From Dehalococcoidia bacterium (GTDB lineage Bacteria > Chloroflexota > Dehalococcoidia > Lucifugimonadales > UBA3495), in the NCBI GenBank assembly GCA_041485445.1, contig JBGPJN010000001.1, positions 11,221 to 75,220 on the forward strand: DNA of 64,000 nucleotides. The letters run 5' to 3'. The notes under the pieces were generated by a model that saw only the letters and a list, made by a program, of their open reading frames with translations, did not search any database and was not told the origin of the DNA. The first letter of the stretch is position 1. Each line of letters opens with the position of its first letter. Positions 5,007 through 51,695 of this stretch are shown in pieces. The position numbers and the translations under genes are program-made.

Positions 5007-6020
5007 CTAGTGGGCGCCGTTCTTGTTGCTGTTTCCTTCCGGTATGCCGGTGGCGATGACCGTCAACCTGGTGGTGGTCTGCAGCTCCAGGTCGGTGGAC
5101 ATCCCAAAGAAGATGGTGGCCCGGGGGTCAACCTTGCGGGAGAGGGCCTCGCCCACGGCGTTGACGTCGCCCAGGGTTAGCGAGGTCCCGCCCTTGACGT
5201 TGAACAGGATGCCCATGGCGCCCTCGATGGACAGGTCAACCAGCGGGTTGCCCATAGCCATCTGGCAGGCCTGGGCCGCGCCGTACTGGCCGGTGCCTTC
5301 GCCCACGGCCATCAGCGCCCGGCCGGGGAGCTTCATGATGGTCTTGACGTCGGCCAGGTCCACGTTGATGTCGCCGGGCACATTGACCAATTCGGCCACC
5401 GAGTTGATGCCTTGCATCACCACGGTGTCCACCACCTTCAGCGCCTCCTGGATGGAGACGTCCTTGGGGACCATCTTCAGCAGGCTATCGTTGTGGACAA
5501 TGATGAGGTTGTCCACCTTTTCCTTCAGCTTGGCCATGCCAACCATGGCCGTTTCCATGCGCTTGGCGCCTTCCCAGGAGAAGGGGGTGGTGGCGACCGC
5601 CACCGTGAGCACGCCGGCGTGCCTTACCATCTCTGCCACCACGGGCGCAGCTCCCGTGCCGGTGCCGCCGCCCAGGCCGGTGGCGATGAACACCAGGTCG
5701 CTGTGGGCCACCGCCCGCTGCAGGGCCGCCTTGGCGCTCTCCGCAGCCTGGGCGCCCACTTCCGGGTCGCCGCCGGCGCCCAGACCGTGGGTGAGGCGCT
5801 CACCGATGAAGATCCGCATGGCGCCTTCCGGGACCTTGCCCAGGGACTTGACGTCCGTGTTGCAGCAGATGTACTGGACGCCGGGAATGGTCTTCTCCCG
5901 GATCATGCGGCTGACGGTGTTGCATCCGCCGCCGCCCACGCCGATGATAGTAATAGTCGCCGGGGCGTCACTGAACTCCAGGTTCTTGCTGGACCGGGAT
6001 GAGGCTCTTGTGGTGGCCAT
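5007..6020 (-). CDS. ftsZ: cell division GTPase FtsZ (short form, no C-terminal linker or tail)
   Basis: It carries IGVGGGGCNTV, the tubulin signature GGGTGTGAAPVVAE, and a T7-loop region. A GGAGGA SD lies upstream. The protein ends 11 aa after the core strand LTVIATGI. Confidence 0.9.
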   Translation of the reverse strand: MATTRASSRSSKNLEFSDAPATITIIGVGGGGCNTVSRMIREKTIPGVQYICCNTDVKSLGKVPEGAMRIFIGERLTHGLGAGGDPEVGAQAAESAKAALQRAVAHSDLVFIATGLGGGTGTGAAPVVAEMVRHAGVLTVAVATTPFSWEGAKRMETAMVGMAKLKEKVDNLIIVHNDSLLKMVPKDVSIQEALKVVDTVVMQGINSVAELVNVPGDINVDLADVKTIMKLPGRALMAVGEGTGQYGAAQACQMAMGNPLVDLSIEGAMGILFNVKGGTSLTLGDVNAVGEALSRKVDPRATIFFGMSTDLELQTTTRLTVIATGIPEGNSNKNGAH

Positions 6021-6187
6021 GAAGAAAATTCCTCCTCGGATTTAGTATCCCGCCAAAATATATAAGAACTGGGATAAGACCTATTGTGCCAGTCCGCTGG
6101 TTGGAAATTCTAGGAAAATGCCCGCCATATTTGCCCAGTTTGCGGTCACACCGCTGGACCCCCAGCGTACATCCCCGCGGCATGCGC

Positions 6188-6216
6188 TTGCAGCGGCGCC
6201 GCCGCGAGCATAGACT
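6188..6216 (+). promoter_or_regulatory. candidate sigma70-type promoter for the PAC2-like gene (TTGCAG-N17-TAGACT)
   Basis: TTGCAG at 6188-6193 and TAGACT at 6211-6216 are separated by a 17-nt spacer, about 47 nt upstream of the ATG at 6263. This is a pattern match only. Confidence 0.3.
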
Positions 6217-6262
6217 GGTGAGCAAAGGGAGATTGTCGGCTGGGTGGATTACGGAGGCAGCC

Positions 6263-7213
6263 ATGGAACGCCCGGAGCTGTTGACCCTGCGGCATCGGCC
6301 TGCCGCCAAGTACCTCATCGCCGGTTGGAAGCGCTCTTGGTCCGACGGCGGCGAGGTATCCGGTGGGTTGCCGGAGTATTTAATGGACCACCTGCGGGCG
6401 CGGCCCATTGGGGAGATGGGGGCGGAGGTCTCCCGCATGTGCTACCCCTTCCAGGTAGCGGGGACCCACGATGCCTACCGCCCCGCGGTGGCCTACCGGG
6501 ATGGGCTGCCCACCAAAGCCATGTCCCGGGAGAACCGCTTCTACGACGCGGGCCAGGGTCTGGTCCTTTTCTTGGGTGAGGAGCCCTGGCACCGGATAGA
6601 TATCTACGGTGACGCCTTCTTCCAGGCGGTCCAGACGCTGGGAGTCCAGCAGACCGTGGCGGTGGAGGGCTATTATGGGACCTGTCCCCCGGAGCTGGAG
6701 CGGAGCATTAACTGCATCTACAGTCGCCCGGAGATGAAGGCGACGCTGGAACGGTACGGCCTGCGGTTCTCCAACTTCGGCAGCGAACGCCGCCAGGGGC
6801 CGACCATCGGCATGGCCCTGGTGACCCTGGCCCACTACCAACACCCGGAGCTGGCGATGTTGCGCATGGGGGCCATGGCGCCCATGTACCCTTTCACTGC
6901 CAGCAATGAGCAGGTGGGCATCACCACCGACCACCGCGCCTTTTACGACATCCTGCGCCGGCTACGGTCGCTGTTCCAGTTGGACCTGGACCTCTCCGAC
7001 TTGCGGCAGCGGGCGGACGCCGATGCGGACCGTTTGCAGCGGATTCTGGACCGCATCAGCGAGACCAATCCCGAAGCCCGGGAGATTATCCGGCGGGCCC
7101 AGGCCGACTACCAGGCCACGCCCTACGTGGAGCCGGTGGCGCTGGACCCCGCCCTGGACCGGACCCTGGACGACATACTCCGGAACCCCCCCGACCCCCC
7201 TGGGGGCAGGTAG
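6263..7213 (+). CDS. PAC2 (proteasome assembly chaperone 2-like, ATP-grasp-like) family protein
   Basis: The start is at MERPELL, preceded by a GGAGG SD. The pattern LIAGW...GGEVSG...LVLFLGEEP...YYGTCP...GPTIGMALV matches my recollection of bacterial PAC2 proteins. The tail is a C-terminal coiled coil. The ORF track begins earlier, at 6086. Confidence 0.55.
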   Translation: MERPELLTLRHRPAAKYLIAGWKRSWSDGGEVSGGLPEYLMDHLRARPIGEMGAEVSRMCYPFQVAGTHDAYRPAVAYRDGLPTKAMSRENRFYDAGQGLVLFLGEEPWHRIDIYGDAFFQAVQTLGVQQTVAVEGYYGTCPPELERSINCIYSRPEMKATLERYGLRFSNFGSERRQGPTIGMALVTLAHYQHPELAMLRMGAMAPMYPFTASNEQVGITTDHRAFYDILRRLRSLFQLDLDLSDLRQRADADADRLQRILDRISETNPEAREIIRRAQADYQATPYVEPVALDPALDRTLDDILRNPPDPPGGR

Positions 7214-7451
7214 CATCGCCCTCATCCGTTGCTAAACCAATGCCCCAGTGCAGTCCCCAGACGCGGCGTAGGAGGGCCCCTTCATTCCCCCGGAAGGCAG
7301 GGGCAGACCGAAGCCGGCCCTGAGCGCAACGACGCAACAAAGGGTGTCTGCCCTTCGGCTGGATGGTCAGTCCAGAGCCCATCCCGACACAGTCGGGACG
7401 CCCCTACGGGCAAGCCGAAAATGAAGGTCTTGTTCAAGGCCATTCCCCAAG

Positions 7452-8532
7452 ATGGGGACGGCTTCTTTCGGAGATCTTAATTTAAGGCGAAGAACTTTGG
7501 CTAATATGCTTGGCGGTCGCAACTCCTTTAACGTACTCCATCAGGTGCTGATGGGGGGCATGACCGTGCTGGTGCTGTCCCTGGGAATGCTCTTCCAGGG
7601 GATAACCCCGGCCCAGGCCGGTGACCCGCCGTATATCCTCATCTTCAAGGTGGATGACTCCGACCCGCCGGCCCGGCTGGCCGGGGCTACATTCCACATA
7701 GTCCCCAACCCCGCGGGCTCCTGCCAGGACAACCATCGTGGGGTTCCATGGGACTCGACTAACCCCAACTTCGTAGCCGACTTTCTGGACGTTACCGACA
7801 ACGTCCCTCATCCAGCTGGCTGGCTGGGACGAAGATCCGGCTGTTGGTGTCATCAGGATTCAGGACCTGATCCCCAACCCCAACCGCCCAGGGGAGATGC
7901 GCCCCGGCCCGTGTGACGAGGGCAACGGTGTGCTCAGCTACACCATCAGCGAGATTACGGCCCCGGCGGGTTACGAGCGTGACCCGGTTGTCAAAGTAGC
8001 CCCGTACCTTGTGCCGGCTCCCCATGTGCGTGAGGCCTTGGCCACATTCGTCAATCACCGCAAGGAGAACGGCACGCCGACGCCGACGCCGACGCCTGCA
8101 CCCACGCCCACGCCGACTCCTACGCCGACTCCCACGCCCACGCCTACGCCTACGCCTACGCCTACTCCTACTCCTGAGCCCACGCCTACGCCCACGTTAA
8201 CGCCGCCAGGCAGCGGTGGTGGCGGCGGGTCCCCAACTGCCCCAACGCCTGCGCCAGTGCCTGCACCCACACCGGCGCCTACTGTGGCGGCAGCGGTGCC
8301 GGTGGCCCCACCCCTGGCGGCGCCCACACCGGCGCCGACTCCTACGCCGGCGCCTACGGTGGCGGCGGCGGTGCCGGTGGCGCCGACACCTCAGCCGGCG
8401 GCGGTGGCGGTGACTGGGACCCCCGGCGGTGGAGGCAGTCCATTGGTCTGGGTTCTGGCCGGACTGGCTGGCGCTGCCTTAGTAGGATGGGTGTTCTTGG
8501 TGGTCCGACGCCGCGGGAGGGCGGGAGCGTAA
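7452..8532 (+). pseudogene. cell-surface protein with a prealbumin/SpaA-like fold domain, a TP-repeat stalk and a C-terminal membrane anchor; split by a +1 frameshift at a (GCTG)3 repeat
   Basis: ORFs 7452-7916 and 7897-8532 are two frames of one gene. The first carries a signal peptide and LAGATFHIV. The second carries [16 protein letters not shown], a (TP)n tract, and a hydrophobic anchor plus RRRGRAGA. Deleting one GCTG unit at 7815-7826 fuses them in frame as ...[18 protein letters not shown].... Confidence 0.7.
8074..8196 (+). repeat. hexanucleotide (ACG/ACN CCN) tandem repeat encoding (Thr-Pro)n
   Basis: About 20 consecutive ACGCCG-like units are visible. Downstream, a roughly 39-bp imperfect direct repeat (8271-8309 and 8346-8384) encodes [16 protein letters not shown] twice. 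Confidence 0.85.
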
Positions 8533-8848: not shown

Positions 8849-10195
8849 TCAGTTACCTTTCGGGGGGCGCTCCGGGCTCGTAGTGCGGTCAGCGTCCTGC
8901 CCCCAGAGGGGATGCTGGAAAGTGGGCGCCAGCGCCGGGTGAACTACCTTAGGCTGTGGGCGTGGTGTAGCTAGGTATTCCACCTGGTCGGGAGGGGATG
9001 GTTGCCGGTGGCGGGCCGGACCCCGGCGCGGGCCCAGCTGATTCAGGCGGCGGGCAAGGGCACTTAGGCTGTTCAAATTGTGCACCGGCAGAAAATCGTC
9101 CACGTGGGGCAAGGCCGCCCGCATCCCCCTTGTGAGCGGCTGGTACTCTGGTGACGCCAGCAGCGGGTTCAGCCAGATAAGGCGATGACAACTCCGCCGC
9201 AGCCGCTCCATCTCTTGGCCCAACAGTTCCGGTTCGCCCCGGTCCCAGCCGTCGGAGATTACCAGCACCACGGCCCCCCCTCCCAGCACCCGGCGCGCCC
9301 AGCGAAAGTTGAAGGTCTTCACTGCCTCGCCGATGCGAGTGCCCCCCGCCCAATCCGGCACGGCCTTGGACACCTCACTAACGGCTTGGTCAACGCTGCG
9401 GTGGCCCAGATGACGCGTGATGCGGGTAAGCCGGGTGGCGAAGAGAAAGGCCTCAACCCGGTCGAGACCCCTGGCGACGGTGTGGATGAAATGGAGCAGC
9501 ATACGGGTATACTGCTCCATGGAGCCGCTTACGTCGCAAAGTAGCACCAGGGTTCGGGGCTTGTCTTTGGTCCGCCGATGCGCCAACTCCAGCCACTCGC
9601 CGCCGTATTTGAGGTTGCGGCGCATGGTGCCCCGCAGGTCTAACCAAGCGCCGTCGCCGGCTTCCCGCCGCCGGGTGCGCCGCCGGCCCAGTTCCCAGGC
9701 CAGCTCCGCCATCATGTGCCTGGCCTCACCGATCTCGGCGACGGTATAGTCGGCAAAGTCCTTAGCTCGCAGGACCTCCTGAGGGCTGTAGCCGTAGCTC
9801 AGGTCGACTCGGTCAGCCGTGGGGTCGGCGCCCTCTTGAGCCTGGTTCTCCTGGCCCACAGCCCCGGGAGGCATTATCTGGGGCTTACGATAACGCCGCT
9901 GCTCACCCATGGAGCGCAGGTCCATGGCGGTTCGGTCGGTGGCGGGTCGCCGCCAGAAAACCTGGAACGCTTCGTCGAAGATGGGGAGGTCCTCCTTCCG
10001 GTGCACCAGCAGGCAGCGGGCCGCTTGGCGGAACTCTTCCCTGCGGCCGATGGCCAACTGCTCCGTGGCCCGCACCAGCTCCAGCATGTTGTCGGAGCTC
10101 ACCTCCAAGCCCGCCCTGCGCAGAACCTGGCCAAATAGCATCAGGTTACGCAAGATGTGGCCAGGGGCCCCGCCATCGCCGGATTGGGTGGTCAC
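8849..10195 (-). CDS. coxE: VWA domain protein, CoxE-like
   Basis: The N-terminus LRNLMLFGQVLRRAGLEV and a C-terminal VWA/MIDAS-like DVSGSM are typical of CoxE. Its start overlaps the coxD stop by 4 nt. Confidence 0.85.
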   Translation of the reverse strand: MTTQSGDGGAPGHILRNLMLFGQVLRRAGLEVSSDNMLELVRATEQLAIGRREEFRQAARCLLVHRKEDLPIFDEAFQVFWRRPATDRTAMDLRSMGEQRRYRKPQIMPPGAVGQENQAQEGADPTADRVDLSYGYSPQEVLRAKDFADYTVAEIGEARHMMAELAWELGRRRTRRREAGDGAWLDLRGTMRRNLKYGGEWLELAHRRTKDKPRTLVLLCDVSGSMEQYTRMLLHFIHTVARGLDRVEAFLFATRLTRITRHLGHRSVDQAVSEVSKAVPDWAGGTRIGEAVKTFNFRWARRVLGGGAVVLVISDGWDRGEPELLGQEMERLRRSCHRLIWLNPLLASPEYQPLTRGMRAALPHVDDFLPVHNLNSLSALARRLNQLGPRRGPARHRQPSPPDQVEYLATPRPQPKVVHPALAPTFQHPLWGQDADRTTSPERPPKGN

Positions 10196-41624: not shown

Positions 41625-42182
41625 CTAGTCCCAACGCAACACCCTTTCTTTGACCCCAGCCACGTCGTACAGGACCAGCTCCAGGGGCTCGGGACTCTGA
41701 GTATATGCTGGCTTGATCCCGGTGTCCCTGCTGGAGAACAGGAGAAGCCCCGACCGGTGGTGGGAGTCCTCCTTGAGGCCCTGCCAGGCGATGGGCTTGA
41801 ACTCTCGACCGTTACTGTCCCGGAAGGCGGCGAGCTTGGCGACGTCCAGGGCCATGAGGTCCCCGGCGTGGGTATCCAGTTGCACGACAAAGCCCCAGTA
41901 GTCTGACGGATATCCCCTGGCCGTCAGGTCGGAAGCCTCAGCGGGAGTCGCCACAAAGGTGACGCCTCCCTGGCCACCGTCGGTCCTGGTCAACCCCTGG
42001 CGGGCCGATGGCTCGCCGGGGGCAACCCCACTCTCTCCGTTGGAGGGCGCGGGCTGCGACCCGCACGCCATCACACCCACAACGAACAGACTGGCTAGGG
42101 ACAGCATGATGAACGCCCGCCCGCTTCCCCTCCCCCTTCCCAGGGGCCGCGGCATGATGCTGCTGGCAACGACTGCCATCAC
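41625..42182 (-). CDS. putative lipoprotein of unknown function
   Basis: It has a signal peptide with the lipobox VMACGS and a mature domain with an HH pair (EDSHHRSG). Its start overlaps the stop of the upstream membrane protein by 4 nt. Confidence 0.5.
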   Translation of the reverse strand: MMAVVASSIMPRPLGRGRGSGRAFIMLSLASLFVVGVMACGSQPAPSNGESGVAPGEPSARQGLTRTDGGQGGVTFVATPAEASDLTARGYPSDYWGFVVQLDTHAGDLMALDVAKLAAFRDSNGREFKPIAWQGLKEDSHHRSGLLLFSSRDTGIKPAYTQSPEPLELVLYDVAGVKERVLRWD

Positions 42183-42727
42183 CCTCCTCCAGTCGCAGTT
42201 TGTGCTTTCATGGCCCGCAGGTGAGCCCGGCCCTGGAGCACGACCCTCACCATGATGGCCACGCCGACGGCGTTAACCACCAGGCCCACCACCATGAAGG
42301 GAACGCGGTACTGGTTGAGGAAGATGGCCGCGCCGGACAGGCCAAGCACCGGCAGCACGTCGGTGACGTGATGCAGGCAGCAGGCCACCATGGCCACCGA
42401 GGATGTGCCGGTGCCCGCGCCGGTGGCCGCGGTGGGCGCCGCCAGCCGGACTCCGTGGTGGACCACCAGGCGCAGGTAGCTGTAGAGGCCCATCTGCACA
42501 CCGAAACCTCCGGCAATGGCCGACACCAGGGCCCGGTCCTGGCCCAGCAGCTCCACAGCGTGGGTCCACCCCTGGCCCCAGGTGACAATCCCCAGGTAAA
42601 GCAGCACCAGGAACCCCGCTGCCGCCAGCCCCAGAATGAAGGGCAATAATCGCCGCACCAGGCTAATTTGTGCCGTGGTCTGGGGCGTACCTTGGTCTGG
42701 CAGGTGGCACGCTGCCTCGCTGGACAT
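42179..42727 (-). CDS. membrane protein with an intramembrane vicinal-Cys motif (VACCLHHVTDVLPVLGLSG)
   Basis: I chose the start at MSSEAA, which has a GGAGG SD; the ORF track extends to 42847, overlapping ubiB. There are about 5 TM helices. The CC motif in a helix followed by P..LG..GLS resembles the MerF/MerT metal-transfer helix. Confidence 0.5.
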   Translation of the reverse strand: MSSEAACHLPDQGTPQTTAQISLVRRLLPFILGLAAAGFLVLLYLGIVTWGQGWTHAVELLGQDRALVSAIAGGFGVQMGLYSYLRLVVHHGVRLAAPTAATGAGTGTSSVAMVACCLHHVTDVLPVLGLSGAAIFLNQYRVPFMVVGLVVNAVGVAIMVRVVLQGRAHLRAMKAQTATGGG

Positions 42728-42776
42728 GGGAGCCTCCTTCAACAGTGATTGCCCAGGGCAGTCTACCCTGGGGAGT

Positions 42777-44459
42777 TTACTTGGCCCTCCAGATGCTCCA
42801 GGCCAGATACCCGCCCAGCACCGATGCCGCCACCATCCCCGCGCCAAACATCACTGCAAGCCACCCCTCGTTCCCGCCAGGATGGTAGACCGACATCAAC
42901 ACCGCCAGGCCGTTAATCAATGCGGCTGCGATGATCCCCAGGACGATGCGATTGACCAGCTTTTCCAGCCGCCCCATGTAGGGTTCAAGACCTGCTGGCT
43001 GAACGCGCACCGAGATATCCCCTCGCTCCAGGGCCCTCACGATGCGTCTGGCTCGCTTGGGGAGCTCCACCCCTAACCACGCCAGGTCCGGGGCAGCCCG
43101 GCCCAACTGCTGGCCCCACCGCCACGGCGAGTACTGCCGGACCATAACCCGTTTAGCGTAAGGCTCCAGCACGGTGGCCAGGTTGAACGCCGGGTCAAGG
43201 CGTTCCCCGATGCTCTCGCTCATGATCAAAGTCTTGATCAGAAGAAACAGATTGGAAGGAAGACGCATGTGATGGCGTTGCATCACCGACATGGCGTCGG
43301 TGAGCAATGGGCCAAGGTGCAGCTCGGCCAGCGGCCGTCCGTAGTAGCGGGACATCAGGTGCTTGACGTCTCTCACCAGCAGCGACCGGTCCACGCCTCC
43401 CCGGGTAACACCCATGTCGAAAAACGCGTCCACCAGGCGCTCCACGTCCCCCCCGGTAATGGATAGGAGCACTTCAACCAGTTGCCCCTGGGTCAACTCG
43501 TCTACCGTGCCCACCATGCCAAAGTCGATAAGGCCGATGCGCCCATCAGCCTCGATGAAAATGTTTCCTGGGTGCGGGTCGGCATGGAAAAAGCCGTTCT
43601 CAAAGACCGTCTTCAGCAAAATCTCCGCCGCACGCCCGGCCAAAGCCTCCCGGTTGATGCCAGCGGCCTCCAGGGCCTCCACATCACTGACCTTAATGCC
43701 GCGGATCCGCTCCAGAGTGATGACACGGGAGGTCGTTGCCTCCAAGAAAATGCGCGGGATGTGAACGTCGGGGTCGTTTTTGAAGATCTGGCCGAACCGT
43801 TCGGCGTTCCGGCCCTCTTGCAGGTAGTCCAGCTCCGCCTGCAGGGTCTCGGAGAACTCGTCCACCAGGCCCGCCAGGTCGTACTGCTCTGCCGGCTTCC
43901 AGCGGCGGCTGGCTGCCGCCGCCAGGTTATGCAGAATGCCCAGGTCCTCCTGGACCTGTTCCACCACCCCTGGCTTGCGCACCTTGACCACCGCTTCCGT
44001 GCCGTCCAAGAGCGTGGCGGCATGGGCCTGACCGATTGACGCGGTGGCCATGGGCTGGGGGTCAAAGCTGGCGAAGACGGACTCGGGGGGCTGGCCCAGC
44101 TCCTGAGCTATGACCTCCCTGATGGCCGGGTAGGGGACGGGCGGGGCGCTGTCCTGCAGTTTGGCCAGCTCCGTCAGGTACTCCGGCGGCAGCAGGTCAG
44201 CCCGGGTGGAAAGGACCTGGCCCAGCTTGATGAAGGTGGTGCCCAGCTCCTCCACCGCCATGCGGATGTGTTCTGGTTGAGTGTAGGGCGTGGTCCGCCG
44301 CGGATGCCCCAGCAGGCCCCGGTGGAAGGGCACGAACCGCTCCAGGCCGACAGTGCCCACCAGGTATCCCAGGCCGTGGCGGCTGAGCACGCCGGCAATC
44401 TGCCGATACCGCCGCAGATGGTTAACCCCGGCCCCTTTTTTCAAGGCTCTGCCATTCAC
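42777..44459 (-). CDS. ubiB: ABC1/UbiB atypical kinase family protein
   Basis: It has ASIGQAHAA..L.DG..VVVKV.KPG, HADPHPGN and IDFGMVG motifs, and C-terminal TM helices. Confidence 0.9.
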   Translation of the reverse strand: MNGRALKKGAGVNHLRRYRQIAGVLSRHGLGYLVGTVGLERFVPFHRGLLGHPRRTTPYTQPEHIRMAVEELGTTFIKLGQVLSTRADLLPPEYLTELAKLQDSAPPVPYPAIREVIAQELGQPPESVFASFDPQPMATASIGQAHAATLLDGTEAVVKVRKPGVVEQVQEDLGILHNLAAAASRRWKPAEQYDLAGLVDEFSETLQAELDYLQEGRNAERFGQIFKNDPDVHIPRIFLEATTSRVITLERIRGIKVSDVEALEAAGINREALAGRAAEILLKTVFENGFFHADPHPGNIFIEADGRIGLIDFGMVGTVDELTQGQLVEVLLSITGGDVERLVDAFFDMGVTRGGVDRSLLVRDVKHLMSRYYGRPLAELHLGPLLTDAMSVMQRHHMRLPSNLFLLIKTLIMSESIGERLDPAFNLATVLEPYAKRVMVRQYSPWRWGQQLGRAAPDLAWLGVELPKRARRIVRALERGDISVRVQPAGLEPYMGRLEKLVNRIVLGIIAAALINGLAVLMSVYHPGGNEGWLAVMFGAGMVAASVLGGYLAWSIWRAK

Positions 44460-44468
44460 GGCTGCATC

Positions 44469-45506
44469 CTAGTGGCCCATGCCCGGCATGGAAGGACCCC
44501 TGACTGGAGCCGGCGCCGGTGCGTTGCCGCCGGCATAGCCCTGGTAGCCGTCAAACTTGATGACCTGCATGAGTCCGCCCGGCTCTACACCGCCGTTCTC
44601 GGTATGGTGCAGCTCATGGCAGTGGAACATCCAGTTGCCCGGATTATCGGCGATGAAAGCGATGTCGTAGGTCTCCCCCGGATCAACGCTGAGGGTGTTC
44701 ATCCACTGCTGGTTGCCCGCCGCCACCGGCTCCCCGTCTTTGGCCACCACCTTGAAATCCATCCCGTGCAGGTGCATGGGGTGGGCCAGGTTGCTGATGT
44801 TCACCAGCCGCACCCGCACCTTGTCGCCCTGCTTAACGCTCCAGGGCTCGGTGGCAGGATAGGACTTGCCGTTGATGGTGAAGAAGTTGTAGCCCATGTT
44901 CATGCCGCCCATCGCCATGCCAGGCCCAGCCCCCACGATCCAGGCGCCCAGGACCATGGAGAACTCCTTGTCAAAGGTCGGTGTCCCCACCTTCTGGGGC
45001 TCTATGACCACCAGGCCGTACAGTCCGTTGTCGATCTGCTCCACACTGTTGATGTGGGGATGGTACATGAAGGTGCCGGCGTGGGAGGCTTTGAACTCGT
45101 AGGTGAAGGTCTCTTGGGGCCGGATGGGCGCCTGGGTCAGACCTGGCACCCCGTCCATGGGGTTGGGCACGTGGACGCCGTGCCAGTGGATGCTGGTGTC
45201 CTGGTCCAACTCATTCTTCACCACTACACGCAGAGTATCGCCCTCGATGACCCGGATGGTGGGGCCGGGCACGGTGCCGTTGTAGGTGATGGCCGGAATG
45301 GTGACGCCCGGCACCAGCTCCCAAGGCGCCCGTTGCACCACCAGGTCGTAGGACTTGGTGGCGCCGGTGGGGTTGGGGTTGCCGCTGTAGCCCAGGGAGA
45401 CGGGTAACGGGTAAGGGATGGCAGGATCGGAAGCACTGGGGTTGCTGCATGCCACCATGGCGCCCGCCAGCAGAGCAATAAGAATGGGGACACTGAGTTT
45501 CCGCAT
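44469..45506 (-). CDS. two-domain multicopper oxidase lipoprotein (SLAC-like size)
   Basis: The start at MRKLSV has a GGAGGA SD and the lipobox MVACS. The four MCO motifs HWHG, YHPH, HPMHLHG and HCHELHH fall within only 345 aa. The tail is Met/His-rich (SMPGMGH). The ORF track extends to 45725. Confidence 0.85.
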   Translation of the reverse strand: MRKLSVPILIALLAGAMVACSNPSASDPAIPYPLPVSLGYSGNPNPTGATKSYDLVVQRAPWELVPGVTIPAITYNGTVPGPTIRVIEGDTLRVVVKNELDQDTSIHWHGVHVPNPMDGVPGLTQAPIRPQETFTYEFKASHAGTFMYHPHINSVEQIDNGLYGLVVIEPQKVGTPTFDKEFSMVLGAWIVGAGPGMAMGGMNMGYNFFTINGKSYPATEPWSVKQGDKVRVRLVNISNLAHPMHLHGMDFKVVAKDGEPVAAGNQQWMNTLSVDPGETYDIAFIADNPGNWMFHCHELHHTENGGVEPGGLMQVIKFDGYQGYAGGNAPAPAPVRGPSMPGMGH

Positions 45507-45664
45507 GGTCGTCGTCCTCCTGTATAGTCCACGCCCGCCATTTCCTGGCCGGCGACAATCTCCCAGAAACCGGGAGCGTCTTGTTGCCTGGGCATGCCTT
45601 CCAATCCGCATCCCGCTGGTTCCGCCCATCATGCCCGCCGTTGCAGTTGCCCGAGTTCGACTGG

Positions 45665-46192
45665 TCAGGGCCGTGTCTTCAGATACTCCGCCAATTCTGC
45701 CAGGTCTTCGTCGCTGAGCCTCCATCGGGGCATGTTTGCGCTGAGCGGCGTGCCGCCGGGATGCTTTCCTTCCACGACGGCGAGGCGGAAGGTTTCAAGG
45801 TTGTATGCCGCGCTTCCGTGCACCGCTTCACTCTCACCGCCGTGTTCACCCTCCATCTCACCAGCCAGCACTACCCAACGAATGTCGGGTGCATACATCG
45901 TTTGCATTCCCATCATGGTATGTACGCCGCCACGACCATCGGGGCCATGACAGGAAGCACAGGTCAGGTAGCCACGCATCATCATCATGCCCGAGGACGG
46001 CCCGCCCGTGTAAGTAATGTTGGGGCCCTTTTCGCTTGTGGCGGTGAAGTAAATGCGTTCGCCGCTGGAATCAAATGCTCCCACACCCCACGCAGTGCCG
46101 CCCTGCGGCAGCTGTGGCGCACAGGCCAAGAGCGATACCGTGGCCAGCACGCCGAGCAGCCAAACCGGGATGAAGTTGCCTTGGCGGTTCAC
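45665..46192 (-). CDS. monoheme c-type cytochrome (lipoprotein-like signal)
   Basis: It has the CASCHGPDG heme motif and the signal LLGVLATVSLLACA. I propose a GTG start with an AAGGAG SD, forming a GTGA overlap with the SRPBCC stop. The ORF track extends to 46351. Confidence 0.7.
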   Translation of the reverse strand: MNRQGNFIPVWLLGVLATVSLLACAPQLPQGGTAWGVGAFDSSGERIYFTATSEKGPNITYTGGPSSGMMMMRGYLTCASCHGPDGRGGVHTMMGMQTMYAPDIRWVVLAGEMEGEHGGESEAVHGSAAYNLETFRLAVVEGKHPGGTPLSANMPRWRLSDEDLAELAEYLKTRP

Positions 46193-46737
46193 CGTCTCAC
46201 GCTCCTTTTCGAGTCTTCCGCTTGGTGATCCTTCCTTACAACACTGGACACAACACTGGACGCTAGCTTGGCATAGTGGCCTTGCGCGCCTTTGACCATC
46301 TGCCGCACGCAATACTTGGCGTAGGCCCTGCCGAGGAGCCGTCCCAGCCATGCATTCTTGGGCGGCAGGTCATAGTCTATGGCAACGCGAAGCAGCGAGC
46401 TACAGTCCCGCGGCTCCACCTCAATACTCATGCGGTAATGCCCCACCACCAGAAGCCGCAGGTCCCCCACGGTCGCCCATGTCTTCCCTCGCGGCGGGTC
46501 GTAGCGCGTGACCACTTCGTCCAGGAAAAGTCTAATCCCGAAAACCTTGCCGCTCATACGAATGTGAGAGCCGACCTGCTGGCCGCGCCCCTCGTCCACT
46601 GAAATCTCCATGCGCCCACCCCCCGTCAGCCAGGACGACTGGCTCATGTGCGAGGAGAACCGGGCGTGGTCATCCACGTAGGCGAATAGATCTTCCGCCG
46701 GGGCGCTGATCGTTACGGAAGCTTCATAGTGCTTCAT
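46189..46737 (-). CDS. SRPBCC (START/polyketide cyclase-like) family protein
   Basis: The N-terminus [23 protein letters not shown] is typical of SRPBCC proteins, and the length is 182 aa. Confidence 0.75.
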
Positions 46738-46907
46738 GCACCCGCCTTAACGTACTTGTCCGGCTCCTTCTTGAAGTTGGCCTGGCACGCCGGACTGCAA
46801 AAGTAGTAGGTCTTGCCCTGGTAGTCGTGAGTCGCCTTGGTCTTCTTGGGCTCTATCTCCATCCCGCACACCGGGTCCTTGGCCTTTTGTTTAGTCCAGA
46901 ACGGCAT
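46734..46907 (-). CDS. YHS/TRASH domain protein (57 aa, absent from the ORF track)
   Basis: My own translation gives [65 protein letters not shown] lies upstream, and an ATGA overlap links it to the SRPBCC start. Confidence 0.75.
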
Positions 46908-46937: not shown

Positions 46938-47597
46938 TCATGGTTCACGAACTGCGACGCCCCGCGAACTCCACCGGGGAATGAAGGCAGGAGTCCGCAG
47001 GGCATAGGCATCCCACCCCTCGCCAAACTCGCTTTTTACCTCCGCTTCCTCCCGCCGGGCTAGGCGGACGTACATCCAGACCAGCACCGGGAACATGGCC
47101 AGTGTCAGGATGGTCGGCCACTGGAGTAGGAAGCCCAGCATGATGAGCACGAAGGCGGCGTACTGGGGATGGCGGATGCGCGCGTACGGCCCGGTGGTGG
47201 CCAGGGCGTGAGCTCGCTGGGCCTTGTACAGCACCTGCCAGGAGCTGGCCAGGAGGACGAATCCGCCGAAGATCAGGACGTTGCTTAGGATGTGGAACGG
47301 CCCCAGGTGGGGATTGCTTCGCCAGCCGAACATGACCTCCAGGAGATGACCGGCATCGTGGGAGAAGAAATCGACGCCGGGGAACTTGCTCGAGAGCCAC
47401 CCTGAGAGCAGGTAGATGGTCAGGGGAAACCCGTACATCTCGGTAAACAGCGCCACAATGAAGGCGGAGAAGGCGCCAAAGGACCGCCAGTCCCTAGGGG
47501 TCTTTGGCTTGGTAAAGCTGAAGGCAAAGATGATGAACACCAGCGAGTTGATGACAACCAGCGTCCACAGGCCGTAGGCAGGCGCTAACGCAGTCAT
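46938..47597 (-). CDS. isoprenylcysteine carboxyl methyltransferase (ICMT)/PEMT-family membrane methyltransferase
   Basis: The C-terminal signature is [20 protein letters not shown]...RREE. The protein is polytopic. Confidence 0.8.
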
Positions 47598-47830
47598 GGC
47601 TTCGCAGACTCCTTGGCATGGGCATGAGGATCGTCACCCCCGGCCGGTCCACCGTGGCCTTTATGCATGAACAGGTGCAGCAGCAGACACGCCGCCACCA
47701 GCAGGAACGGCAGAAAGCCGAAGAGGTGGGCGCGGTGTTCCGTGAAGAGGAAAAAGGCGGCCACCGCCAGAAAGCCCAGCAGGGCCCATTTCCACCTGGA
47801 GCCAGTTCGATTCTGGGGTTGTCCATGCAT
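47594..47830 (-). CDS. DUF2933-like small membrane protein with a His-rich tail
   Basis: [49 protein letters not shown] matches my recollection of DUF2933. The start has an AAGGTGGA SD, and there is a 4-nt overlap with the ICMT start. Confidence 0.65.
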
Positions 47831-47840
47831 GCGGTCCACC

Positions 47841-48107
47841 TTATGCCTGCCCTTCCAAGCTGGAGTTGTGCATCCAGACGAAGTAGGCGGCAAGAATCAG
47901 CGCGAACGCCAGCGCGTAGACCGCGCCCAGCACCACGCTTCCGGCGTTGATCCACGTGAATCCGGGCAACGTCTCAAAGATGGTGTGATGTAGCTCCATG
48001 CCGCGGGCGCTGCGCCACGGCATAAACCCGCCCAGCAGGCAGATGACGTAGACGACCTCGGCGCCCAGGACGCACTTCCAAGCATATGTTGTAAGTGAAA
48101 GGTTCAT
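47841..48107 (-). CDS. small membrane protein (DUF5676-like, from memory)
   Basis: The start is at MNLSLTTY. There are 2-3 TM helices. It sits in the position and has the size typical of small proteins found next to DUF2933 in metal loci. Confidence 0.5.
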   Translation of the reverse strand: MNLSLTTYAWKCVLGAEVVYVICLLGGFMPWRSARGMELHHTIFETLPGFTWINAGSVVLGAVYALAFALILAAYFVWMHNSSLEGQA

Positions 48108-48972: not shown

Positions 48973-51468
48973 TTACTGGCCCGCCACTGGAGCCAGGTCA
49001 TTTGCCGGTGCTCCGGCTCCCTTCCGTAGCCGCCGGACTGGCGGCACAAACCCCCGCATCCGCTGAGTGTTCAGCGTCACCGAGAGGGAGCTGACCGCCA
49101 TCAGCAGCGCTGCCAGCTCCGGGCTGACCACCTGGGCAAAGAAGGGGTAGAGCAGGCCTGCGCCCAGGGGGATGGCCAGGGTGTTGTAGCCAAAGGCCCA
49201 CACCAGGTTCTCCTTGACCAGCCCCATGGTCCGGCGCGCCACCTGTATGGCGGCGATGACGTCCATCAGGTCGTCCTTGATGAGAATGACATGGCCGGTC
49301 TCCTTGGCTACGTCGGTGCCGGAGCCGATGGCGATGCCCACGTTGGCCTGGGCCAGGGCCGGCGCGTCGTTGATTCCGTCGCCCACCATGGCCACCCGGT
49401 ACTCCTCCGCCTGGAGCTTCTTCAGCTCGTTGGCCTTGTCCTCGGGCAGCACCTCCGCCAGCACCCGGTCGATGCCCAGCTTGGCGGCAATGGCGGCGGC
49501 GGTACGCTGGTTGTCGCCGGTGATCATGGCCACCTTCATGCCCATCCCCTGGAGGGCCTTGACTGCCTGGGCCGAGGTGTCTTTGAGGGTGTCGGCCACG
49601 GCCACCATCCCCAGCAGTTGACCGTCCGCCGCCACGAACATGGCGGTCTTGCCCTCAGTCTCCAGACGCTCCGCCTCGGGCAGGGCCGCCGCCAGGGGTA
49701 TCCCCTTCAAGGCCATCAGCCTCCGGTTGCCCAGCAGCACCCAGCGCCCGTCCACCCTGGCCTCAATGCCGTGGCCGGGAATGGCGTTGAACCCTGAGGC
49801 GTCCTCCAGCGTAAGACCCTGGGCCTGGGCACCCCGCACAATGGCTTCGCCCAACGGGTGCTCCGAGTTCTTCTCGGCGATGGCCGCCAAGCGCAGCACG
49901 TCCTCCTCGGCGCCGCCCAGGGCGACCACGTCGGTCACCGAGGGCTGGCCCTTGGTGAGGGTGCCGGTCTTGTCGAAGACCACGAACTGGAGCTTGGAGG
50001 TGGCCTCGATGGCATCCGCACCCTTGAAGAGGATACCGTGCTCGGCGGCCTTGCCGGTGCCCGCCATCATAGCCGCGGGAGTAGCCATGCCCACCGCGCA
50101 TGGGCAGGAGATGATCAGCACGCTCACCGAGGTCAGCAGGGCGAAGCCGAACACCCCCATGGCCGCCAGTGTGTAGGGCGTCAGCATGAGGTGGCTTTCC
50201 GGGGTGAACCAGAGGCCATAGCCCAGGAAGAACCAGAACAGGAACACCGTCAGGGCCAGGGCATGGACCCCCAGGATGAACTGGCCCGCCACCCGGTCGG
50301 CCAGCTTCTGGATGGGCGCCTTGCGGGTCTGGGCCTCCTCCACCAGCTTGATGATCTGGGCCAGGGCGGTGTCTTTGCCCACCTTGGTGGCGCGGAACGT
50401 GAAGGCGCCGGTCTTGTTCAGAGTAGCGCCGATGACCTCGTCCCCCGCTTTCTTCTCCACCGGCATGCTCTCCCCAGTGATCATGGACTGGTCCACTGAG
50501 GAGTAGCCTTCCTGAATCAGGCCGTCCACTGGAATGCTCTCTCCGGGCTTCACCAACAGCAGGTCGTTGATCTGCACCTCCTCGGCGGCGATCTCCACCT
50601 CCTGCCCGTCCCGCATCACCCTGGCCCTTCGGGGCTGGAGCTTCATCAGGCGGCGGATGGCCTCAGACGTGCGCCCCATGGTCACCGCCTCCAGGTAGCG
50701 CCCCAGGACGATGAAGGCGGTGAGCAGCACCGCAGCCTCGTAGAAGGTGGCCTCACGCCCGCCGAAGCCGGCCTCGGGCCAGAAGGTGTTGATGACGGCG
50801 ATGAGGTAGGCGGCGCCGATGCCGGTGGCGTAAAGGAGGTTCATGTCGGTGATGCCGTGCTTGAGGCCGTTCCAGGAGTTCACGAAGAACTGTCGCCCCG
50901 GCCCGAAGACGATGGGCGTGGTGAGCAGGAACAGCACCACCTTGTCGTTCAGCCACTGGGGAATGAGGCTGGGCAGGAACCAGTAGGGCTGGAAGGTGCC
51001 CAGCATCACCACAATGCCCACGGGCCAGGCGATGGCCATGTTGATCAGCTGGCGGCGGGTCTCCCTCTGCCGGGCCGCCCGTTCCCGGTCCAGGGCCTCC
51101 TGCCCCTCTGCCCTTTCGGCCACTCCATAGCCCAGGTCCTGGATGACCCTCTTGAGTTGTTGGGGCGAGACCGCTCCCGGAACGTACTCAATACGGGCGT
51201 TCTCGGTGGCGGAGGTGACCACCGCCTGCTGTACCCCCGGCGTTCCCATCAAGGCCTTGGTGATGTTCACCTCACAGTGCCCCCCCATCATGCCGGTGAC
51301 GTGGAACTGGATGGTGGCCGTGTCCCCCTCAGACCCCCCTTGGCCCGTCGATCCAGTGGTGGCGACAGAGGGGGCCGCGGCCGGGTCGTACGGCACTCGG
51401 GTGCCGCAGTGGGGGCAAATCTGCCTGTCGTCGTTGGCTCTTGGCTCTTTCTGGAGTTTCCTGGCCAT
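48973..51468 (-). CDS. copA: copper-translocating P1B-1-type ATPase
   Basis: It has the CPC motif in [26 protein letters not shown], the TM7 YN (FGYNTLAIP) and the TM8 MAVSSLSV. The start at MARKLQ has a GGGAGG SD; the ORF track extends to 51648. The N-terminal HMA-like domain carries GMMGGHC instead of GMTCxxC. Confidence 0.95.
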
Positions 51469-51470
51469 AC

Positions 51471-51695
51471 TCAACCTCCCTGCTTGCTGGAAGGGCGCCC
51501 TGGTCTCTTGCCCCAGCCAAAATACGTGAACAGATACCAGCAGAGCAGGAAATCTGCCAGGACCAATGCTCCCAACAGGTACCAGGTCGTGCGCCAGCCG
51601 ATGAAGCGCGGCGCCACCAGGAGCAACACCGGGATGGTGCATAGCCAAAGAGCAATGGCCATCCAGAGACCCGTATTGTCAGACCTTCGATGCAT
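51471..51695 (-). CDS. small two-TM membrane protein (hypothetical) immediately upstream of copA
   Basis: This 74 aa ORF has an AGGGAG SD and ends 2 nt before the copA start. I recognise no family. Confidence 0.35.

Follow-up and report, generated by a model that had tools for sequence, protein, structure and literature searches.

This report concerns four consecutive genes in a 64,000-nt stretch of DNA from a Dehalococcoidia bacterium (contig JBGPJN010000001.1; hereafter "the window", to whose full length all coordinates refer). They encode a YHS/TRASH protein, an SRPBCC protein, a monohaem cytochrome c and a two-domain multicopper oxidase (MCO), and they form the middle of a gene island of ~10 kb that occupies a single strand. 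In order, the island comprises a CopA-type pump, small membrane proteins, a DUF2933 protein, an ICMT-like protein, the YHS, SRPBCC, cytochrome c and MCO proteins, a UbiB-type kinase and two envelope proteins; the four genes and these neighbours all lie on the minus strand (Table 1). Judging from the sequences, we consider it probable that the island serves copper detoxification and that the MCO oxidises the Cu(I) that the pump exports.

Architecture and T1 site of the multicopper oxidase

The ATG of the MCO gene is preceded, at a spacing of 9 nt, by GGAGG. Its product begins with a signal peptide and a lipobox (MVAC, in …AMVAC) and, as a preliminary description of this locus had recognised, packs all four copper motifs (HWHG, HPH, HPMHLHG and HCHELHHTENGG) into 345 residues that end in a Met- and His-rich tail, SMPGMGH. 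Only two Pfam domains were found, Cu-oxidase_3 (residues 58–172) and Cu-oxidase_2 (203–305). The best sequence matches in the PDB were mgLAC (2zwn, 2e-56) and the blue copper oxidase of Nitrosomonas (NeBCO; 3g5w, 1e-50). An AlphaFold model of the monomer, built from 104 homologues (pLDDT 90.3), matched these two structures over its full length, with TM-scores of 0.80 and 0.79, respectively, an rmsd of 2.4 Å, and 38% and 36% identity. The enzyme is thus of the two-domain, not the three-domain, kind. Three-domain identity was also rejected for the homologues of 430–517 residues and for the orthologous 490-residue MCO of locus L085: in their alignment, the linker between the two domains contains low-complexity inserts that are rich in Met (such as MQDMGRQMTEMGTQMMAMGGQMG…). 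The insert is ~145 residues long in L085, and the longest, in homologue P0005, has 159 residues, 36 of them Met. Across the family, the linkers are 16% Met (GMAMGGMNMG in the window), and the C-terminal residue is His in 97 of 120 homologues, most of which have an MPGMxH tail. We also observed, among the representatives at 50% identity, a protein of 6257 residues (P0247) with 30 separate stretches that match MCO domains at 34% identity.

The eight histidines of the trinuclear cluster (H107, H109, H149, H151, H245, H247, H295 and H297) are invariant in the 104 sequences (alignment A2), as are the T1 ligands H242, C296 and H301, all of which lie in domain 2. Within HCHELHHTENGG, His295 and His297 are cluster ligands, while Cys296 and His301 are ligands of the T1 copper. 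The corresponding stretch of domain 1, YHPHINSVEQIDNGL, aligns with YHCHVNSPHHVDMGM of type-C enzymes such that the T1 Cys is replaced by Pro, the His by Gln and the Met by Leu; by this alignment, domain 1 appears to hold no T1 site. Because its T1 site lies in domain 2 only, the protein is, according to the definition of two-domain MCOs quoted in PMC13151041, a type-B enzyme on an mgLAC-type scaffold. By analogy, it is presumably a homotrimer with the clusters at the subunit interfaces. The preliminary description had called the enzyme SLAC-like; this holds for its size, but not for its kinship, as domain 2 alone matched mgLAC and NeBCO at 1e-33 and 1e-32 and SLAC-type chains at only 1e-10 to 1e-14 (3cg8, ~1e-10).

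The company that the model keeps raises another possible function. Two-domain relatives in nitrifiers have been proposed to act in nitrogen-oxide chemistry (on hydroxylamine, NO or nitrite), and the structural neighbours of the window MCO include NeBCO, a Nitrosopumilus MCO (9cck) and copper nitrite reductases; one homologue, P0103, is named a nitrite reductase in UniRef. However, the window MCO has a full trinuclear cluster instead of a type-2 nitrite site, its T1 copper is in the opposite domain from that of NeBCO, and Pfam scans of the island found no nitrification or denitrification genes. Such a role is very improbable.

The axial position of the T1 site was surveyed in 120 close homologues, in 150 representatives at 50% identity and in 80 species-level loci. 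The preliminary description had placed a Gly at this position, with the next Met eight residues further on. As a literal count, this is accurate: Gly305 is Cys+10, and Met313 follows eight residues later. However, the count crosses a six-residue insertion. The close homologues share the motif FHCHELHHTEN[DNGA]G[V]EPGGL[IMVLT]Q, with D, N, G, A, E or H at Cys+10 and in no case Met. The canonical HCHxxxHxxxxM is found in short-loop relatives (e.g., HCHELHHASAGM), and HCH-x3-H-x10-M, ending in …PGGM, in relatives with the long loop of the window protein; nine representatives of the latter are type-B-like, and four have Cys in both domains, a type-A-like arrangement. When all were aligned with MAFFT, a six-residue gap opened in the short-loop sequences, and both their Met and the PGGM Met fell on Leu312 of the window protein. 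This Leu is invariant in alignment A2; among the 120 close homologues, it is Leu in 117 and Met in one. In the model, the final β-strand (313–318) begins right after it. Gly305, the Asp or Asn that relatives have there, and Met313 were all rejected as axial residues, since these positions are variable while the invariant Leu312 aligns with Met.

Given this alignment of Leu312 with the Met of the relatives, a three-coordinate T1 site is predicted, with His242, Cys296 and His301 as ligands and a non-ligating Leu312. On the alignment evidence, then, the apparent axial Gly is an artefact of counting across the loop insertion; the alternative that had been offered with it, a simple insertion, is borne out by the six-residue-longer loop. 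Alignment with the characterised two-domain enzymes likewise upheld the type-B assignment and the lack of a normal axial Met. A three-coordinate T1 copper with an axial Leu is the solution found in Fet3p and in high-potential fungal laccases. Among characterised bacterial MCOs it is uncommon, yet it is no new kind of site. Separately, we noted that P0357, P0375, P0376 and P0379 combine a YHCH…M domain 1 and an HCH…PGGM domain 2 with long N-terminal extensions; they resemble type A, which PMC3192119 reports only from archaea.

Taken by itself, the T1 site could belong to an Fe(II) or Mn(II) oxidase or to a phenolic laccase that sits in a copper island only through its own need for copper. Fet3p and the fungal laccases have the same predicted three-coordinate, Leu-axial geometry, acidic residues surround the T1 His301 (Glu308 is invariant in the 104 sequences, and Glu298 and Glu303 nearly so), mgLAC reportedly oxidises phenolic substrates, and many homologues bear the name "manganese oxidase" in JGI annotations. 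That name, however, is an automatic orthology assignment and not an experimental result. Moreover, the Met-rich linkers, their inserts of 100–159 residues and the MPGMxH tail are characteristic of proteins that handle Cu(I) and not of Fe, Mn or phenol oxidation; the recurrent neighbours of the family are YHS genes and copper pumps; and Pfam scans of the island found no iron-uptake, manganese or aromatic-catabolism genes near the MCO. We therefore regard these substrates as unlikely.

The YHS, SRPBCC and cytochrome c genes

The first of the four genes was absent from the open reading frame (ORF) track because its product is shorter than 60 residues. The preliminary description had proposed it from the sequence, and the gene proved to be real. 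Its product matches Pfam YHS with 63.1 bits (cut-off 30.3; E 2.3e-17), the cysteine pattern C14-x22-C37-x3-C41 conforms to the TRASH spacing C-x(19–22)-C-x3-C, and the sequence contains the stretch YYFCSPAC. A GGAGG precedes the ATG by 9 nt. Comparison with relatives of equal length gave 2/1/9 substitutions at codon positions 1/2/3 against L081 and 1/0/8 against L090; as judged from this bias, the gene is under protein-level selection. Independent gene callers annotate it in L081, L085 and L170, and YHS genes recur directly upstream of both MCO relatives and cytochrome c genes. The protein lacks a signal peptide, and a PDB sequence search returned weak matches only (YHS segments of phenol and methane monooxygenases, and ribosomal protein L24e). 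From these sequence features, it is likely to be a cytoplasmic Cu(I)-binding protein, either a chaperone or a sensor.

The start codon of the SRPBCC gene overlaps the YHS stop codon (ATGA), as already described. Its cytoplasmic product of 182 residues matches Pfam Polyketide_cyc2 with 52.7 bits (cut-off 27.4; E 7.5e-14); no solved relative emerged from a PDB sequence search. The family is a sizeable one (516 matches), with identities of 60–70% across Chloroflexota, candidate phyla radiation (CPR) bacteria and a Halobacterium. Its members adjoin YHS genes in L171 and L179–L182 and a CsoR-type repressor gene, a DUF2933–ICMT pair or a Cu-type ATPase pump in L172–L174 and L179–L182, and one homologue, P0468 (211 residues), is a natural SRPBCC–YHS fusion. 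The pairs of L171 (6001-7006) and L179 (5001-5699), from a Halobacterium and from CsoR-associated pump operons, have the order reversed relative to the window. DUF302 genes are also present in the SRPBCC/YHS islands L171 and L172.

For the cytochrome, the proposed GTG start overlapping the SRPBCC stop (GTGA) is indeed present and has an AAGGAG 9 nt before it; in relatives, independent gene calling arrived at this start as well, giving 175 residues in L081 and L170. The protein has a lipobox (LLAC, in …SLLAC) and a CASCH haem-attachment motif, and it matches Pfam Cytochrom_C with 34.3 bits (cut-off 21.3; E 6e-8). CxxCH and the distal Met (Met154, in MPRW) are invariant in alignments of 42 and 121 sequences, and the larger alignment also shows conserved GMMMGGG and HTM..MQTM stretches. 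With CxxCH and a distal Met, the protein has the sequence characteristics of a class I c-type cytochrome, for which haem attachment is predicted. The family numbers more than 1100 homologues; a PDB sequence search gave marginal matches only.

Between the cytochrome and MCO genes, the gap measures 158 nt, close to the ~160 nt first estimated. This spacer is moderately conserved in L081, and its position in L085 is taken by a DUF302 gene (within the stretch 5605-7607, which also includes the MCO). An RNA element was rejected as its content, as there was no Rfam match at E ≤ 0.1, and so was a terminator or promoter, as no such site was found on the coding strand. The spacer does contain a perfect 5-bp inverted repeat, CTCCC-N7-GGGAG (45560-45576), which is only partly conserved in L081 and is not followed by a T-run on the coding strand; it may be an operator or have arisen by chance.

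Island layout and conservation of the gene order

The two overlaps described above confirm that the YHS, SRPBCC and cytochrome genes are tightly coupled, but the coupling does not stop at the four genes. Upstream, the DUF2933 and ICMT-like genes share a 4-nt overlap, and a gap of 30 nt separates the latter from the YHS gene. Downstream, 9 nt lie between the MCO stop and the UbiB start, with an AGGA that overlaps the TAG of the MCO gene; the same junction is found in L081 (9 nt) and in L085 (24 nt). The limits of the four-gene module are therefore arbitrary: DUF2933–ICMT and UbiB are coupled as tightly as the four are. There is no obvious explanation for the coupling of a quinone- or lipid-related kinase to a copper oxidase.

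Table 1. Features of the window discussed in the text
Feature	Position	Strand	Basis
YHS/TRASH protein, 57 aa	46734..46907	-	Pfam YHS
SRPBCC (Polyketide_cyc2) protein, 182 aa	46189..46737	-	Pfam
Lipoprotein monohaem class-I cytochrome c (haem attachment predicted), 175 aa	45665..46192	-	Pfam Cytochrom_C
Cytochrome c–MCO spacer, 158 nt	45507..45664	-	Gap between genes
Lipoprotein two-domain MCO, 345 aa	44469..45506	-	Pfam, PDB matches, model
MCO T1 motif HCHELHHTENGG, residues 295–306	44589..44624	-	Invariant in 104-sequence alignment A2
Leu312 codon, inferred T1 axial position	44571..44573	-	Alignments and model
ABC1/UbiB-type atypical kinase, 560 aa	42777..44459	-	Pfam ABC1, E 1.5e-76
ICMT-like membrane methyltransferase	46938..47597	-	Pfam ICMT/PEMT
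DUF2933 small membrane protein	47594..47893	-	Pfam DUF2933, E 1.2e-19
P1B-type ATPase (CopA-like), probably Cu(I)-exporting	48973..51648	-	Pfam E1-E2_ATPase, Hydrolase, HMA
Membrane protein with CCLHH motif, no assigned family	42179..42847	-	Conserved downstream of UbiB
Lipoprotein, no assigned family	41625..42182	-	Conserved downstream of UbiB

The transmembrane signatures of the ATPase (CPC, YN and MxxSS) are visible in its translation. Its HMA domain (approximately residues 115-175) has an altered form of the canonical GMTCxxC, in which another residue takes the place of the first Cys and the second Cys follows a His. Met-Gly strings recur through the island: they are found in this HMA domain, in the cytochrome (GMMMMRG), in the SRPBCC consensus (SSWMMGGGRM) and in the MCO linker. 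No single-domain cupredoxin was found among the ORFs scanned between 41.6 and 52.7 kb. The two genes 3' of UbiB (41625..42847) had no Pfam or NCBIfam match; the membrane protein carries the motif VAMVACCLHHVTDVLP, the lipoprotein has a GVMACGSQ stretch and a DSHH motif, and in L081 and L085, too, the genes after ABC1 are of about this size. Both envelope proteins may be further copper-handling proteins.

The neighbourhoods of the MCO family were surveyed in 80 species-level representative loci and those of the cytochrome family in 80 metagenome loci of 3.8 kb median length. The preliminary description had treated the four genes as one module, but their full order was found only in very close relatives: L081 (MCO 89% identical), L085/L086, L090, L150 and L170. 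The last is identical to the window in its YHS gene, SRPBCC product and 158-nt spacer, and the two are probably from the same organism; those relatives that are named belong to Chloroflexota (Dehalococcoidia and Anaerolineales). Beyond this circle, the families keep different company. A YHS gene lies directly upstream of the MCO in 7/80 loci, all in the clade with the axial Leu (the Leu clade), and a copper-type ATPase is present in 14/80, while SRPBCC occurs once, on the opposite strand. More distant relatives show other arrangements: ATPase–YHS–MCO in L082/L083 (74% identity), and an ABC ATPase–YHS fusion followed by the MCO in L084 (72%). The island of L084 also contains a gene for Lgt, the prolipoprotein diacylglyceryl transferase (9283-10113), which fits there because the MCO and the cytochrome are lipoproteins. 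At the cytochrome loci, a P-type (copper) ATPase lies within 1.5 kb in 17/80, a YHS gene directly upstream in 9/80 and an MCO within 1.5 kb in 2/80. Twelve ATPase ORFs of >1.5 kb were found in these loci: six have CPH, two have CPC and four have no motif match, and most of the CPH (CopB-like) proteins have a His-rich N-terminus. ICMT-like genes, for their part, recur in the copper islands L001, L021, L073, L168/L169 and L172–L174.

These counts bear directly on the suggestion, made in the preliminary description, that the cytochrome and the MCO are a dedicated electron-transfer pair. In an elaborated form of this idea, the MCO would serve as an alternative cytochrome c:O2 oxidoreductase fed through the cytochrome by the respiratory chain or a metal substrate, with the YHS and SRPBCC proteins helping to assemble the oxidase or to insert its copper. 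In favour of a pair, the cytochrome and MCO genes are neighbours on one strand, their products are lipoproteins that face the same side of the membrane, and the arrangement is kept in L081, L085, L090 and L170, although this is one narrow lineage. An axial Leu predicts a high-potential T1 copper able to accept electrons from a His/Met haem, and the fold has haem-fused relatives (fold-search matches include haem-Cu nitrite reductases). However, none of the 80 MCO loci has a homologue of the window cytochrome next to the MCO (the single homologue found, in L073 with E 6e-4, is >4 kb away), and in the Leu clade, a CxxCH ORF of any kind comes within 2 kb of the MCO at a single locus. Nor do the cytochromes favour oxidases, as the 2 loci with an MCO compare with 17 with a copper pump. 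Even at close range, the DUF302 gene of L085 stands between the two genes, and the 158-nt spacer interrupts an otherwise tight translational coupling. A dedicated pair is thus doubtful. Considering the neighbours family by family, together with the coupling that extends beyond the four genes, we conclude that the four genes are a lineage-specific assortment of independently mobile copper-pump accessories.

Proposed copper(I) oxidation and comparison with known systems

For the MCO, oxidation of Cu(I) is the best reading because of the Met-rich linkers, with inserts of up to 159 residues, and the MPGMxH C-terminus. The island would probably work as follows. Cytoplasmic Cu(I) would be bound by the YHS/TRASH protein, probably with its SRPBCC partner, and exported by the P1B ATPase, whose family is assigned by Pfam and whose metal specificity is suggested by its signature motifs. 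Outside the cytoplasm, the lipid-anchored MCO, presumably as a homotrimer, would capture Cu(I) through its Met-rich linker and MPGMxH tail and oxidise it at the three-coordinate T1 site to the less toxic Cu(II); the electrons would pass from T1 to a putative inter-subunit trinuclear cluster, where O2 would be reduced. The Met-rich cytochrome c would be a general copper-pump accessory that fills the slot of the cupredoxin in the copA–cupredoxin–DUF2933–ICMT islands of Proteobacteria. Its probable task is to bind exported Cu(I) or to trade single electrons with it; electron exchange with the MCO is a further possibility in this lineage.

Several observations weigh against this proposal. A Leu in the axial position, which raises the T1 potential, is typically seen in ferroxidases and in laccases that oxidise phenols, while CueO has Met there. 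Many homologues carry the "manganese oxidase" label noted above. The UbiB kinase is coupled to the MCO and has no obvious role in copper handling. Pfam scans of the ORFs between 41.6 and 52.7 kb found no CsoR, MerR or CopY-like regulator. The structure model of the cytochrome (pLDDT 52.6) was unusable. Finally, the YHS and ATPase associations are seen in a minority of the sampled loci, which is partly due to short contigs.

A bolder scheme would assign the Met-rich cytochrome to an undescribed class of extracytoplasmic haem proteins that handle copper and partner CopA- and CopB-type pumps. In this lineage, it would be wired to the Leu-axial type-B MCO on the mgLAC scaffold, in a chain from Cu(I) through the cytochrome and the MCO to O2, and the YHS–SRPBCC pair, fused in some genomes, would be a new cytoplasmic module that handles copper and feeds the pump. 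From the sequences at hand, we judge this scheme improbable.

Copper islands with an MCO, TRASH/YHS copper proteins and the two-domain MCO types A to C are already known. Our literature search, whose coverage was incomplete, found no description of a Leu-axial, long-loop, type-B clade on the mgLAC scaffold, of a Met-rich cytochrome c family beside copper pumps, of YHS proteins with MCOs or of the SRPBCC–YHS pairing. The Leu-axial MCO clade, the pump-side Met-rich cytochrome and the SRPBCC–YHS pairing are thus apparently new. If the proposal is true, it shows how Chloroflexota-type bacteria, which do not have the Cue, Cus and Pco systems so well studied in Proteobacteria, detoxify exported Cu(I): copper defence would rely on a two-domain oxidase, trimeric and with three-coordinate T1 copper, and not on a CueO-like enzyme. 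The Met-rich cytochrome c, SRPBCC–YHS and DUF2933–ICMT families are abundant, uncharacterised companions of copper pumps across phyla and are candidate copper-handling families. Also, close relatives on the mgLAC-type scaffold appear to have T1 sites in both domains, in domain 1 only or in domain 2 only; if confirmed, these arrangements bear on the standing model that derives laccases and nitrite reductases from two-domain oxidases.

The nearest known enzymes are the type-C proteins mgLAC (2zwn) and NeBCO (3g5w). They share with the window MCO the two-cupredoxin architecture, the eight histidines of the cluster and the long loop in domain 2, which closes with GG ahead of the last strand. They differ in the placement of the T1 Cys, which is in domain 1 (YHCH, with HDH in domain 2) in the type-C enzymes, whereas in the window protein, domain 1 reads HPH and domain 2 reads HCH; the window protein additionally has a lipobox, a Met-rich linker and the MPGMxH tail. 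SLAC has a short HCHxxxHxxxxM loop with an axial Met, whereas the T1 loop of the window MCO is six residues longer and would place Leu in the axial position; the relationship is only distant. In common with SLAC and the characterised type-B laccases (3cg8, 3gdc; CjMCO, PMC13151041), the window MCO is of similar size and has its T1 site in the C-terminal domain, and a trimer is presumed by analogy; its context, however, is copper export, in contrast to the secondary metabolism or lignin of the SLAC type.

The cuprous oxidases CueO, PcoA and CopA resemble the window MCO in being extracytoplasmic, Met-rich and encoded with a Cu(I) pump, and the Cu(I)-oxidising role proposed here would be shared with them. 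They are, however, monomers of three domains in which the axial residue is Met and a Met-rich helix covers the T1 site, in contrast to a two-domain lipoprotein, presumably trimeric, with a predicted axial Leu and with its Met residues in the linker and C-terminus. Fet3p and the high-potential fungal laccases (Leu or Phe axial) have the same predicted set of His, Cys and His ligands with a non-coordinating aliphatic residue in an MCO; they differ in domain number, kingdom, loop length and context.

Among gene clusters, the closest parallel is the merR–copA–cupredoxin–DUF2933–ICMT genomic-island module of Alteromonas and other Proteobacteria (PMC8478169). Both it and the window have a copper P-type ATPase, a DUF2933/ICMT-like pair and a small extracytoplasmic one-electron protein. 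In the window, the Met-rich cytochrome c takes the place of the cupredoxin, the YHS, SRPBCC, two-domain MCO and UbiB genes are added, and MerR was not found among the ORFs scanned. The YHS protein itself has counterparts in the archaeal TRASH proteins of the CopM/CopT type and in a Mycobacterium phlei adenylyl cyclase whose YHS module senses copper (PMC4626032): the common feature is a small metal-binding Cys-x(19–22)-Cys-x3-Cys module encoded next to a copper pump. Unlike them, the window protein is a stand-alone bacterial protein of 57 residues that is translationally coupled to an SRPBCC gene.

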